From an uncultured Thermococci archaeon (GTDB lineage Archaea > Methanobacteriota_B > Thermococci > Thermococcales > Thermococcaceae), in the NCBI GenBank assembly GCA_964487115.1, contig CAZAPD010000019.1, positions 1 through 26,008 on the forward strand: 26,008 bases of DNA. Reading direction: 5' to 3'. Within the stretch, counting starts at the first letter, position 1; every line of letters starts with the position of its first letter. Made by a program: the position numbers and the translations under genes. Of this stretch, positions 63-5,123 are shown one piece after another. The notes beneath the pieces are model-generated. The model was not told where the DNA came from and made no database searches. It saw only the letters and a list, made by a program, of their open reading frames with translations.

Positions 63-680
63 TTAAAGCTCTTCCAACCATTTCTCTTTCTTCTTTTTCT
101 CTCTCTCCTCGCCAGTCACTTTCTCAGCAGCTACTTCCGGCTCAAGCTCCCCCTCCTTTACGGCATGTATTGTCCTCATTATCTCTGCCAGCTCCTCGTC
201 CTCCCCGAAGTCAACACCCGCTCCGATCGTCTGGTCGGTCATGCCGAGCATCTGATTGAGGTTCTCGCTGAAGTTTCGAGCATCGAGCTGCATCTCAGCT
301 AAGTTTCTTTCAAGCTCCTCCGGAGACATGTTATTGAGCAAATTCCACGTCGGTGTGCCTTTCAGTATTGCTTCATTTTCCTTGATAATGGTGAGGTTGC
401 TTATGAGCATGAGCTGTTTGTTCAGCTGAGCGTGCGTAGCTTGGAGGTTCTTTTTACGTTGATTTAGAGTTTTTATCTTCGTCGCTATCGTCAGCTCTTC
501 GCTTTTGCTTCGGGCTTTTTTTGCCTGCTCGAAAAGCAGAGCGATTTCCCTATCTATTGCAGCGATATCCTTCTCAACCTTTTCAATTTGATACTCCAGC
601 TTTATCTGGCTCTCTTTAAGCTTGGAGAGAGGTATATCAAGCGGATTCTTCTTTCCAAAAAATCTGGAGAAAAAGCTCAT
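63..680 (-). CDS. Snf7/ESCRT-III-like helical protein, paralog 2 (205 aa)
   Basis: N-terminal amphipathic segment MSFFSRFFGKK, long helical hairpin, basic N-half and acidic C-half. Aligns by eye with the 677-1270 protein. Start overlaps the upstream stop (ATGA). Confidence 0.65.
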   Translation of the reverse strand: MSFFSRFFGKKNPLDIPLSKLKESQIKLEYQIEKVEKDIAAIDREIALLFEQAKKARSKSEELTIATKIKTLNQRKKNLQATHAQLNKQLMLISNLTIIKENEAILKGTPTWNLLNNMSPEELERNLAEMQLDARNFSENLNQMLGMTDQTIGAGVDFGEDEELAEIMRTIHAVKEGELEPEVAAEKVTGEEREKKKKEKWLEEL

Positions 681-1270
681 TCCTCTTCCTCCAGCTCTTT
701 ATCAATGGAAGCTATCTTTTCAGTTACTTCCTCAACATCGGCTTCACCAGCCTCAACCTGGCTCCACGCTCTCATGAGTTCCTTCTCGGTCTCATCCTCT
801 GCTGCCTCAAACTCCGCTATTTCCATTTCAAAGACTCTGTTGAGGCTGCTCACCATTTCATCGAACTCTTTACCATCGAGATTTACCTTTATCAGCGCTG
901 CTTCAAGATGTTCAGGTTCAACATTGGCCAATTTGTTCCAGATACCGATTTTTCTTAGCTCCTTTTCGTATTTCTTGACTATTATAAGGTTCTTAACAAG
1001 GGTGTACTGCTTTTGGGCTGTTGTGAAGTCTTTGAGCTTAAGCTTCTGCTCCATGTCAAGGCCTTTAATCTCCTGTGCCAGCATCTTCTTCTTCAGTTTG
1101 TCCGCACCAATTCCCTCCTGGAAGAGCTGCTTCTTTTTCTTCTCTATCTGGTTTATATCCTTCTTCAGCCTTTCAAGCCTGTTTTTCAGTCTTATCTCCT
1201 CCGCCTGAAGCTCTCTCAGAGAGAGCTTATCGATTGCATTCTTCCTGCTAAATCTATCTAATATGCCCAT
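677..1270 (-). CDS. Snf7/ESCRT-III-like helical protein, paralog 1 (197 aa)
   Basis: MGILDRFSRK amphipathic start, basic coiled-coil hairpin, very acidic C-terminus. RBS GGGGGTGA just upstream of ATG 1270. Confidence 0.65.
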   Translation of the reverse strand: MGILDRFSRKNAIDKLSLRELQAEEIRLKNRLERLKKDINQIEKKKKQLFQEGIGADKLKKKMLAQEIKGLDMEQKLKLKDFTTAQKQYTLVKNLIIVKKYEKELRKIGIWNKLANVEPEHLEAALIKVNLDGKEFDEMVSSLNRVFEMEIAEFEAAEDETEKELMRAWSQVEAGEADVEEVTEKIASIDKELEEEE

Positions 1271-1289: not shown

Positions 1290-3098
1290 TTACATCTCTT
1301 TTATCAAAACAAATCCAACCCCATCAATAAACTTGGTCACGTAGCTCTTTTCTCTGGCAAGTTCGTAGAATGCTTTTTTCACAACATTTTCCGGGCCATA
1401 CTCGAGCATGTCCTCAAGTCTAACGTAACCCTTTTTGGTAATTTTCTCTGTGGTAATGTTCTTAATTCTGCTCATCAGCTCATCATCTCTCTCAAGCCGA
1501 AGGAAAGGTTCGAATGCCTTAGCATATTCATCGTTTGGATTTATGGTGAGCTCTCCAGTTTCAAGATCAAGGAGTACCAGAGAAACCTTTTCAGAGACAA
1601 AGTTCCTGTGGAAGTCTGCTGAGCTTATGTAATCCTTTACACGGTGCTCAAAGCCGGTTGGAGATGCGAGGAGAAGTATAACCCTATCAGAGTTTTCATT
1701 TCTTGCATCAATAAGGAGTGCATTTATGTCGGCAAGCTCAGCCGGATCAACATCAAATCCTATCTCTGCATACTTCTCGGGTCTGCCGTAGAAAATGGCT
1801 TTGACAAGAATTGTTTCTTTCTTTCCAAAGAGCTTCTTCTCCCTAAGAAGTGCAAGCAGAGCAGTATTCTCAGGTATGTTCTTCAGATCCCTCTCATTCA
1901 GCTTTCCTGCAAAGATTCCCGTATCAAAGGTGGCTTTTTCGGTTAGTGATTCAACCTTGAATGTCTTCCCGAGTATCTTAAGCTCACCCTTGAGCTTGCC
2001 TTTCATTCTCCCTATAAAGTTCATCTCCATTATCCTTGCCTCATCTCTCCTGACAAAGCGTGAGCCCTTCTCTATCTTTCCTCTGGCAGCTATTATCTCC
2101 CTTATCCTTTTCTCGACCTCGCTTTCCTTCTGAGATACTTCTATCTCTTTTTTCCTGAGCTCCATCTCCCTCTGCTTCAGCTCAAGCTCTCTCCTCCTTA
2201 TCTCATCTTCCATAGCTTTAATGCTGGCAAACATTTCTCTCTGCATTCTGTCAAGCTCTTCCTCAAGCATTTTCCTTGCTTCTTCATCTTTCATTTTTGA
2301 AATTTCTTCTATGAGTCTCTGACGCTCTTCTTCAAACTGTCTCCGCATCTCTTCCTTCTCCTGAATGAGTCTGGATATCTCTTCCTCTCTCGCCGTTTCA
2401 AGCTTTTTTCTAAGCTCCTCTTTTTCCCTTTCAAACCTCTCTTTAAGTTTAGAAATCTGCTTTTGATATATGTTTTCTATTGCTTCAATTTCTTCCATCT
2501 TCTGCTTCTCCCATTCAGCCATCAGTGATCTGAACCAGTCAAAACGCATAACAGCCTCACTTAATGCCCCGTTAACCTTGCTCTTATATGAATCCCACTT
2601 ATTTTTCAGAAAATATCTAAGTGCAAGCTTTATTTCCGGATCATTCAGCAAATCCTCAATCCATTTATCCACTCCAAGGTAATAGTCCCTCAGAAGGCCA
2701 AGAAGCCTTTCATCTCTGGCAATGAGCTTCTTCATGATGTCATCTTTGCTCATAATCTCGAAGACATTGTAGCGCAGAATCCGTTCAATTGCCTGGATTT
2801 CCTTATTCTGATATCTTTTTTGAGCTGGTGGATAAAGCTCACCGTTATACCAGAAGCTCCAAGCTAAAATCGCCATTGCTCCCTCAAACTTTGCCCTGAA
2901 ATGTCTGTCTAAATCAGGAAGGAAATTACCGCACTTACCATCCAAATAACGGTCATAGTTCTCTTCAACCTGTATCCAAAGCTTCTCTCTTTTATTAAAG
3001 CTTTCGATGTGTATATCCATTCCCTGTCGGATGATGCGCTCGGCTGGTCTCAAAAGTTCCTTAACACATTCAGTTTTTCCTTCTTCGAATATCCCCAT
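1290..3098 (-). CDS. Coiled-coil protein with C-terminal restriction-endonuclease-like domain and winged helix (602 aa)
   Basis: Start moved to ATG 3098 (GGTGG RBS; follows upstream stop at 3100). E/R/K-rich coiled coil at about 2080-2535. Mrr-like pattern VILLLASPTGFE...VSLVLLD. wH-like C-terminus. No Walker A motif. Confidence 0.75.
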   Translation of the reverse strand: MGIFEEGKTECVKELLRPAERIIRQGMDIHIESFNKREKLWIQVEENYDRYLDGKCGNFLPDLDRHFRAKFEGAMAILAWSFWYNGELYPPAQKRYQNKEIQAIERILRYNVFEIMSKDDIMKKLIARDERLLGLLRDYYLGVDKWIEDLLNDPEIKLALRYFLKNKWDSYKSKVNGALSEAVMRFDWFRSLMAEWEKQKMEEIEAIENIYQKQISKLKERFEREKEELRKKLETAREEEISRLIQEKEEMRRQFEEERQRLIEEISKMKDEEARKMLEEELDRMQREMFASIKAMEDEIRRRELELKQREMELRKKEIEVSQKESEVEKRIREIIAARGKIEKGSRFVRRDEARIMEMNFIGRMKGKLKGELKILGKTFKVESLTEKATFDTGIFAGKLNERDLKNIPENTALLALLREKKLFGKKETILVKAIFYGRPEKYAEIGFDVDPAELADINALLIDARNENSDRVILLLASPTGFEHRVKDYISSADFHRNFVSEKVSLVLLDLETGELTINPNDEYAKAFEPFLRLERDDELMSRIKNITTEKITKKGYVRLEDMLEYGPENVVKKAFYELAREKSYVTKFIDGVGFVLIKEM

Positions 3099-3099
3099 T

Positions 3100-3615
3100 T
3101 TAACCACCTGCAAAAAGCTTCATTTCTTCATCAATCCTTTCGGCCAGAAAATCTACAGCGTCTCCATACCCTTCAATCCTAAAAACAACCGATGAAGTTC
3201 CATCACCTTGGATAATGGTCTTGATAACTGCTCTTCCCTTTCGAGTATATACTTCATATACCTTTGCTGAGCCATCGGAATATGAGTAAGTAGCGTTCAG
3301 CTTGGAGAGTAGATATTCTACGAATTTTCCTATGACTCTTGTATCCTCAGGTATAGCATACTGGAGCATTTGTACATTAGCTTTAACCTTTTTTACTGCC
3401 TCCTCGATTTTATAAATCTCTACTTTCTCGGGTGCATTACCAGAAAGCTTTGAAAGAAGCTCCTCCAAGAATTCATTTGCCTCCTCAGTGTCTATAATGA
3501 AGACCATGCCTCGTGGTTTCTTTATTTTAGCTCGACCTGACCATTTGTCAAGAAGGTAATCAACTCGTTTTCTCTCGGCATCGCTTTCATAACTCACAAA
3601 AACCACATATTCCAT
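3100..3615 (-). CDS. Conserved hypothetical protein with Cas2/VapD-like ferredoxin-fold N-terminus (171 aa)
   Basis: YVVFVSYESDAERKRVDYLLDKW...GMVFII resembles the beta-alpha-beta start of Cas2/VapD. First gene of the operon. CDS is confident, fold call is tentative. Confidence 0.7.
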   Translation of the reverse strand: MEYVVFVSYESDAERKRVDYLLDKWSGRAKIKKPRGMVFIIDTEEANEFLEELLSKLSGNAPEKVEIYKIEEAVKKVKANVQMLQYAIPEDTRVIGKFVEYLLSKLNATYSYSDGSAKVYEVYTRKGRAVIKTIIQGDGTSSVVFRIEGYGDAVDFLAERIDEEMKLFAGG

Positions 3616-3648: not shown

Positions 3649-3665
3649 CTATATAAACTTTTCTC
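3649..3665 (-). promoter_or_regulatory. BRE/TATA promoter of the 63-3615 operon
   Basis: Minus strand reads GAGAAAAGTTTATATAG about 35 nt upstream of ATG 3615. Confidence 0.7.
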
Positions 3666-4933: not shown

Positions 4934-4961
4934 AATAACCACCAGTTATTGCTATGGAAAG

Positions 4962-5123
4962 GGATGTGGGCCGGCAACAGAGGCCCGCAGTCACCATTCC
5001 TGCGGGTGGATGCACCGGCCCTGTGGGCTTGGTGTGAGCACAGCCCCATCACCCAGCCCGATATGTCTGGGGCGCGGGTTTAACCAAGCCCAGAGGAGAC
5101 TGTTGTCCCCTCACTGTCGGCAT
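4962..5123 (-). ncRNA. Two-hairpin box H/ACA pseudouridylation guide RNA (probably HgcF/Pab35-type; HgcE-type not excluded)
   Basis: Minus strand GGGCUUGG...CCAAGCCC-ACA-GGGCCGG...CCGGCCC-ACA. Each hairpin has an internal pocket and a K-turn/K-loop (CAGA/UGAUG; GAAUGGUGA). GC-rich intergenic island. TATA TTTTTAAG at 5150-5143. Confidence 0.9.

Follow-up and report, generated by a model that had tools for sequence, protein, structure and literature searches.

An anciently duplicated pair of divergent ESCRT-III-type genes in the main-clade ESCRT locus of a Thermococcaceae archaeon

The window analyzed here is a 26,008-nucleotide (nt) stretch of an uncultured Thermococcaceae archaeon (contig CAZAPD010000019.1, assembly GCA_964487115.1). 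Near its start lie two overlapping genes, A and B, which are the final two genes of a four-gene cassette, D171-C607-A-B, and whose products are paralogs of the ESCRT-III/Snf7 superfamily:

677..1270, reverse strand: gene A, 197 amino acids (aa), ATG start; ESCRT-III/Snf7-superfamily paralog of the arCOG09747 type, upstream member of the pair
63..680, reverse strand: gene B, 205 aa, ATG start; ESCRT-III/Snf7-superfamily paralog of the arCOG09749 type, downstream member of the pair
677..680, reverse strand: ATGA shared by the A stop and the B start; a purine-rich, Shine-Dalgarno-like run lies just 5' of it

The sequence immediately 5' of the B start is GGAGGAAGAGGA, a GGAGG-rich run encoded by the final codons of A. 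An earlier note, made from the letters of the window, had described the two open reading frames as tandem, diverged paralogs joined by this ATGA and had pointed to their charge polarity, and all three observations are borne out. BLASTP aligns A with B end to end, with 31% identity across 191 residues (E 2e-22), and hhalign joins the profiles of their ortholog sets with 99.2% probability (E 1.7e-19). A basic N-terminal half followed by an acidic C-terminal half, a trait of ESCRT-III/Snf7 proteins, is present in both: the net charge of A is +12 over residues 1-105 and -18 over residues 106-197, and that of B is +7 over residues 1-105 and -12 over residues 106-205. The window comes from a Thermococcus genome, as its closest protein homologs are Thermococcus proteins (85-91% identity), and conservation is strong, with 54-60% identity of A and B to their Methanococcales orthologs.

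The cassette is what Makarova et al. 2024 (mBio, PMC10936438) describe as the 'main clade' ESCRT locus of euryarchaea. That survey lists Vps4, ESCRT-III, arCOG09748 and arCOG08177 as components of main-clade systems, found in Thermococcales, Methanococcales and others, frequently with kinases and phosphatases; it describes arCOG09748 as a helical domain at the N-terminus, a coiled coil, a globular domain and a C-terminal winged helix, and arCOG08177 as an inactivated Cas2-like domain with a TBP-fold DUF3568. In its Table S2, T. gammatolerans has a 516-nt arCOG08177 gene, an 1827-nt arCOG09748 gene and a 'Snf7 family protein' pair made up of arCOG09747 (935163..935759) and arCOG09749 (934549..935166), and the same tandem is tabulated for Thermococcus sp. 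4557, AM4, T. cleftensis, T. eurythermalis, T. profundus, T. nautili, P. pacificus and others. Six of the 11 Thermococcales pairs examined in that table have a 4-nt overlap, and in all 11 the A stop and B start overlap or lie at most 1 nt apart.

Orthology and gene order both place A in arCOG09747 and B in arCOG09749. GQS_00145 of Thermococcus sp. 4557 (199 aa) is 83% identical to A, and GQS_RS00145 is entered in Table S2 as arCOG09747 'Snf7 family protein'; other named orthologs are CL1_1730 of T. cleftensis (A) and proteins of P. pacificus and T. eurythermalis (B). These fit the lengths and order of Table S2 rows GQS_RS00145, CL1_RS08940, PAP_RS08620/08625 and TEU_RS08010. Because sizes, 4-nt overlap, tandem arrangement and named orthologs all agree with that table, we conclude that A is arCOG09747 and B is arCOG09749; a 191-aa gene that adjoins Vps4 elsewhere in this genome (see below) is arCOG07402. 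The pair was thus already known from comparative genomics, having been catalogued in 2024; the main text of that survey does not discuss the tandem as such, and our full-text literature search on these arCOG numbers returned only PMC10936438 and copies of it.

The two genes upstream of A complete the cassette:

1290..3098, reverse strand: gene C (C607), coiled-coil protein of 602 aa from ATG 3098 (TTG 3113 and 607 aa according to the open reading frame finder)
3100..3615, reverse strand: gene D (D171), 171 aa with two alpha/beta domains; by position the equivalent of arCOG08177

A pattern scan with one genome per species yielded 21 loci, of which 20 were kept (Thermococcus, Archaeoglobales and Methanothermococcus). 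The other, L024, lies in a Synergistaceae contig and matches over 31 residues (E 3e-4); we took it as chance and excluded it from all counts. The kept loci contain the following genes:

A homolog upstream of B: 18 of 20 loci
C homolog directly upstream of A: 17 of 20 loci
D homolog upstream of C: 16 of 20 loci
Vps4-type ATPase downstream of B: 13 of 20 loci (10 of them with it immediately after B)
Ser/Thr kinase genes: 17 of 20 loci

The cassette is conserved across Thermococcales, Archaeoglobales and Methanococcales, its order is invariably D-C-A-B, and genes are missing only where the flank of a locus is too short. Two loci show anomalies: in L008 the A frame ends after 99 codons though similarity runs on, and in L010 C is split into two frames; in both cases a frameshift or an assembly error of the metagenome bin is the probable cause. 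A Vps4-type AAA ATPase as genomic partner, a trait of ESCRT-III members, is found in the loci of the relatives, and all four neighboring ATPases tested carry AAA and Vps4_C above the Pfam cut-offs. No Pfam MIT domain was detected at E <= 0.01 in these ATPases or in the Vps4 of this genome. That Vps4, the one such gene in the genome (AAA plus Vps4_C), lies on a 2.9-kb contig, C59 (locus L001), which is cut at both ends and reads kinase (cut at its 5' end), Snf7-like 191-aa gene, whose start overlaps the kinase stop, and Vps4 (cut at its 3' end). Since this contig is separate from the cassette, linkage in this genome is inferred, and this counts against our interpretation. The assembly of a single large ESCRT locus probably broke at the paralogous kinases, which left contigs C19, C28 and C59.

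Profile comparisons connect the pair with accepted ESCRT-III proteins. Aligned with hhalign, the A+B profile matches the Vps4-linked arCOG07402 family with 81% probability (E 1.2e-5) over 159 colinear columns, and a broader profile does so with 44.6% probability (E 2.3e-4); several members of arCOG07402 carry a precomputed PF03357 (Snf7) assignment. A tblastn search with a 191-aa arCOG07402 protein reached a B ortholog (E 8e-6). When the broad family profile was run with hmmsearch against 177,635 Protein Data Bank (PDB) sequences, the best match was CdvB (9s9j_A, E 0.0033), with alpha1-alpha2 in register. The ESM Atlas, which we treat as a lead only, gave Snf7 in 5 of the 30 nearest clusters for B and in 18 of 30 named clusters for A. 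This similarity to accepted ESCRT-III proteins, judged from the sequences, is real but remote, and it is colinear.

Other searches weigh against the assignment. The Pfam Snf7 profile (PF03357) meets B below threshold, at 15.0 bits against a cut-off of 27.3 (E 0.021), with B residues 19-170 colinear with profile positions 4-149 of 171, and it does not match A at all. This cut-off is a weak criterion for archaea because none of 14 control genomes passes it in a six-frame search, including Sulfolobus acidocaldarius with its accepted CdvB. A HMMER profile of A+B collected 340 relatives among 1.84 billion representatives, almost all of them without Pfam annotation, so that no transitive HMMER bridge leads to Snf7. 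Only two of 129 scanned family representatives (127 of 148 newly listed matches plus A and B) reached Snf7 at E <= 0.001; the remaining 21 were fragments below about 170 aa or fused forms above 250 aa, seven of which were scanned separately. Against the PDB, phmmer searches with A and B gave no relevant match and no ESCRT-III protein, the B-family profile gave weak NF-YC matches only, and the arCOG07402 profile likewise found no ESCRT-III protein. The ESCRT-III assignment by itself is therefore weaker than the annotation suggests.

The same signals bear on the possibility that A and B are generic coiled-coil proteins without ESCRT-III ancestry. NCBI names some B orthologs 'SNF7 family protein', and many A orthologs bear the name 'chromosome assembly protein'; at Z 6-8 a helical hairpin will match many unrelated folds, and Pfam Snf7 stays below threshold. 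The similarity to the Vps4-linked Snf7 family, however, covers nearly the full length in colinear fashion, the best PDB match is CdvB, operon linkage to Vps4 is conserved, and our family-profile scans matched no SMC, kleisin or other chromosome-related family. We regard such an origin as the least probable of the explanations weighed here. Taken together, Vps4 linkage, remote profile similarity to arCOG07402 and CdvB, a predicted hairpin (described next) and the arCOG label 'Snf7 family protein' uphold the ESCRT-III-type identity that the earlier note had proposed, and support A and B as very divergent members of the ESCRT-III superfamily, on its Snf7/CdvB side.

The AlphaFold2 (AF2) model of B has a mean predicted local distance difference test score (pLDDT) of 72.7. 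It shows a hairpin of helices 18-54 and 59-101 (pLDDT 80-90), followed by shorter helices of lower confidence at 110-117, 120-128, 134-147, 162-175, 181-189 and 191-204, an arrangement that, as modeled, is compatible with the ESCRT-III core fold of an alpha1-alpha2 hairpin plus shorter helices. Structure searches with this model also tell against a firm assignment: Foldseek returned nothing at E <= 0.001, its best match being a CdvB2 filament (E 0.18), and among the 50 matches listed by VIA-align, eight ESCRT-III, PspA or Vipp1 rows scored Z 6.3-7.0 while unrelated hairpins reached Z 7.8. On the predicted model, the fold searches fail to separate the B hairpin from other hairpins. The earlier note had looked to such a model for the hairpin and the helices that follow it; the hairpin is there in B, but the later helices are of lower confidence and the comparisons do not discriminate.

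A PspA/Vipp1-type identity, with membrane maintenance independent of Vps4, would draw on the same structural scores, as PspA (4whe_A, Z 6.7) and Vipp1 (8qfv, Z 6.5) match the model about as well as Snf7-type chains do, and both types typically begin with an amphipathic segment. Yet the Pfam PspA_IM30 profile (PF04012) finds nothing in A or B at E <= 1, nor anything at their coordinates in a genome-wide search, the sole PDB sequence match is CdvB, and the partner gene in the relatives is Vps4, which is not known to be associated with PspA systems. We consider this identity very improbable. Of the two profiles that the earlier note had suggested, Snf7 and PspA_IM30, the former gives its sub-threshold match to B and none to A, and the latter gives none.

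Both proteins had also been credited with an amphipathic N-terminal segment as a membrane anchor. An F...KN(P) segment is conserved, in which F7 and the K11-N12 motif vary little or not at all throughout the A and B families, but the first 11 residues have an unremarkable helical hydrophobic moment (82nd-86th percentile of windows from the same protein) and the mean pLDDT of residues 1-10 in the B model is 54. The suggestion that the tail of the last gene, B (EKKKKEKWLEEL), is a partner-recruitment helix is disfavored. Tails of orthologs vary in length and sequence, some stopping right after the AVKEGEL helix, and pLDDT in this tail of the B model is below 50. Our search for MIT-interacting motifs covered the MIM1 type, the consensus of which is (D/E)xxLxxRLxxL(K/R). 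This consensus has no match in the A or B tail of the window, and 4 of the 128 tails in the family bear a MIM1-like half-motif where shuffling gives 4.15 +/- 1.9, a lack of enrichment that counts against the ESCRT-III reading. MIM1-like tails are confined to the Methanococcales A proteins (4 of 4, D[RE]ELFKRL) and two B tails.

The distribution of the genes speaks to how A and B may work together. Among 61 Thermococcaceae genomes searched, the family is present in 27 and was not found in 34, a patchy pattern; 26 of the 27 family-bearing genomes hold exactly one adjacent A-then-B pair. The exception, G046 (locus L034:1333-3171, forward strand), has no A gene and has a B-type gene with a C-terminal extension of more than 400 residues after the AVKEGELEPE helix; it adjoins an ABC transporter instead of an ESCRT cassette. 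In a maximum-likelihood tree all A proteins fall in one clade (100/100 support) with members from Thermococcales, Archaeoglobales and Methanococcales, set apart by a branch 3.06 in length. The B group extends over these three orders too, with B monophyletic in 16% of bootstrap trees. As the A clade and the B group each span the three orders, the A/B duplication is older than those orders.

Such strict co-retention favors an obligate A-B partnership, and the analogy of CHMP2A-CHMP3 and of archaeal paralog pairs makes a 1:1 A-B copolymer a reasonable inference. Alternatively, A and B could be ESCRT-III-type proteins that form sequential or separate homopolymers, with one serving as template or cap for the other, as Sulfolobus CdvB precedes CdvB1/CdvB2. 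The two lineages have indeed been separate and diverging since before the orders split, and one Thermococcaceae genome makes do with a B-type gene fused to a long extension. In Thermococcales and Archaeoglobales A and B are tightly coupled, by overlap, abutment or a spacer of at most 4 nt. Methanococcales A-B distances run from 19 nt to about 12 kb, so that tight coupling is not universal, which detracts from the copolymer; with the genes often non-adjacent there, equal co-translation is not required. Against separate polymers stand the single adjacent pair kept by 26 of 27 genomes and the stop/start overlap or near-abutment in all the Table S2 pairs examined. We judge an arrangement without a 1:1 copolymer to be a possibility, though a distinctly lesser one.

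Our overall conclusion, which we hold with good though not full confidence, is that A and B are an anciently duplicated, divergent ESCRT-III pair that likely co-assembles into membrane-bound filaments remodeled by Vps4. If the pair behaves like CHMP2A-CHMP3, CdvB1/CdvB2 and Asgard ESCRT-IIIA/B, its basic alpha1-alpha2 hairpin would bind the membrane and adjacent protomers, and the acidic C-terminal half would be autoinhibitory. Co-translation of the overlapping genes would supply both subunits together, C607 (winged-helix/coiled-coil) and D171 (two-domain) might act as nucleators or adaptors, and assembly would be regulated by kinases and disassembly carried out by Vps4. The genome has two FtsZ genes, and the task is therefore likely to be vesicle budding, membrane repair or protein sorting and not cell division. 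The 2024 survey (PMC10936438) argues that systems of this kind work in forming vesicles or sorting proteins and are controlled by phosphorylation; we follow that role as likely, with membrane repair as an equal possibility. A 2021 review of archaeal vesicles reports, as unpublished work, that deleting any of three T. kodakarensis Vps4 homologs left vesicle production unchanged (PMC10117752), a point against our conclusion.

A further observation concerns the kinases. Contig C28 of this genome (locus L031:547-3048, forward strand) encodes a Ser/Thr kinase of 834 aa, cut by the contig end, which consists of beta-propeller repeats, a linker and a Pkinase domain. Its residues 449-500 form a 52-residue segment that is 50% identical and 81% similar to B residues 29-80, the tip of the hairpin (E 3e-14). 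Homologous propeller kinases follow B in L005 and L009-L011, where the segment is missing or partly aligned. To judge from this resemblance, the segment may let the kinase dock on the B polymer. A/B-type domains also occur in fused proteins: P0293 (792 aa) combines SPFH/Band 7, an A/B domain and TIR, P0312 (730 aa) combines an A/B domain with TIR, and P0279 (294 aa) combines TPR with an A/B domain. As A/B-type domains are fused to SPFH, TIR and TPR, some relatives appear to work in immune-type signaling.

These fusions (P0293 and P0312) also speak for an ESCRT-III-like polymer that would be the sensor or effector scaffold of a kinase-controlled response to membrane damage or viruses, not a housekeeping vesicle or sorting machine. 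In the same direction point the patchy occurrence of the family (27 of 61 Thermococcaceae genomes), the multiple and variable kinase paralogs and, in the T. gammatolerans locus of Table S2 (PMC10936438), a TIR protein, an MNT/HEPN pair and AAA-HTH-nuclease genes. Such neighboring defense genes may nevertheless be mere passengers, the flank upstream of D in the window consists of housekeeping genes, and no PADLOC model matches A, B or D, with only weak coiled-coil matches for C; run against NCBIfam, PADLOC and PHROGs, the four products of the cassette brought up nothing of note. We think a response of this kind unlikely. Slightly less likely again, and suggested by the hairpin-bearing kinase together with the SPFH/TIR fusions, is a kinase-wired membrane alarm with the A/B polymer as its scaffold, in which the kinase hairpin segment would insert into or cap the B filament and the whole would serve as a sensor or effector of envelope damage or viruses instead of forming vesicles or sorting proteins.

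For gene C the start is most likely ATG 3098, which lies 1 nt past the D stop with GGTGG 5' of it. No Pfam family matched gene C in our Pfam scan, and its size and position make it the positional equivalent of arCOG09748, the ESCRT protein with a C-terminal winged helix. The 516-nt size of gene D agrees with the arCOG08177 rows of Table S2. Its AF2 model (pLDDT 91.5) has two alpha/beta domains, and its Foldseek neighbors are ferredoxin-fold proteins, a KA1 domain and START/Bet v1-like helix-grip chains, with no Cas2 chain among the matches listed; as predicted, the model is compatible with the published description of arCOG08177. The second domain resembles the KA1 domain of Chk1 (5wi2_A; E 9.5e-4, template modeling score 0.67 on the target, root-mean-square deviation 3.2, 86 columns). 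KA1 domains bind acidic phospholipids, and the KA1-like domain modeled here could be a membrane-targeting module of the cassette. One promoter-like element precedes gene D:

3650..3657, reverse strand: TTTATATA box, 34 nt 5' of the D ATG, identified by sequence only

By the archaeal consensus TTTATATA is a putative TATA box, and it is a candidate for the archaeal promoter of a D-C-A-B operon. Upstream of D, the window beyond the cassette is occupied by housekeeping genes (CbiZ, an EamA transporter, SAM synthetase, ProRS and others), and an HgcF (Pab35) H/ACA guide RNA lies at 4954-5121 on the reverse strand (118 bits, full length), between the genes of a CBS/HTH regulator and the EamA transporter.

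The 2021 review stated that Thermococcales lack ESCRT-III (PMC10117752), and the 2024 survey corrected this on paper only. In organisms that use FtsZ for division, the locus offers a compact, thermostable ESCRT-III set of two subunits, accompanied by its own Vps4, a winged-helix partner and kinases, and hence a clean system for studying a non-division role of archaeal ESCRT and for the early origin of ESCRT-III paralog pairs. To the catalogued pair our analysis adds a quantified A-B co-occurrence, a duplication that precedes three orders, a measure of how weak the sequence and fold signals are, and the lack of a MIM1 signal in the tails searched. The kinase carrying a piece of the B hairpin is a small new observation; the known identity of the family is unchanged.

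Among known systems, PspA/Vipp1 (IM30) proteins (Liu et al. 2021, Cell, PMC8281802) resemble A and B in their helical hairpin, with structural scores equal to those of Snf7-type chains, and differ in that A and B have no PspA_IM30 profile match and their relatives are linked to Vps4. The group of CdvB/CdvB1/CdvB2, Asgard ESCRT-IIIA/B, CHMP2A-CHMP3 and Snf7/CHMP4 shares with A and B a length of about 200 aa, a long basic alpha1-alpha2 hairpin, an acidic C-terminal half, paralog pairs and a Vps4 partner; CdvB is the best PDB sequence match of the family profile and CdvB2 the best Foldseek row. Sequence similarity of the CdvB group to A/B is nevertheless marginal (E 0.0033; Foldseek E 0.18), and the pair comes with no CdvA, no C-terminal winged helix on A or B themselves and no recognizable MIM1. 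The arCOG07402 family is of the same length class (188-191 aa), matches the A/B profile colinearly and shares the locus in relatives, for example in L012, but it has no pairwise BLAST similarity to B (E 3.7), sits on its own deep branch (length 4.27) and is nearer to Pfam Snf7 (E 0.0076) than B is. Closest of all is the published arCOG09747/arCOG09749 locus, which has the order arCOG08177-arCOG09748-arCOG09747-arCOG09749, proteins of about 198 and 205 aa as here, a 4-nt overlap also in T. gammatolerans, AM4, sp. 4557, T. cleftensis, T. eurythermalis and T. profundus, and orthologs in the listed species that are 74-85% identical to A or B. With no substantive difference from that locus, the window holds another species' copy of it, broken off where the contig stops 62 nt past B.

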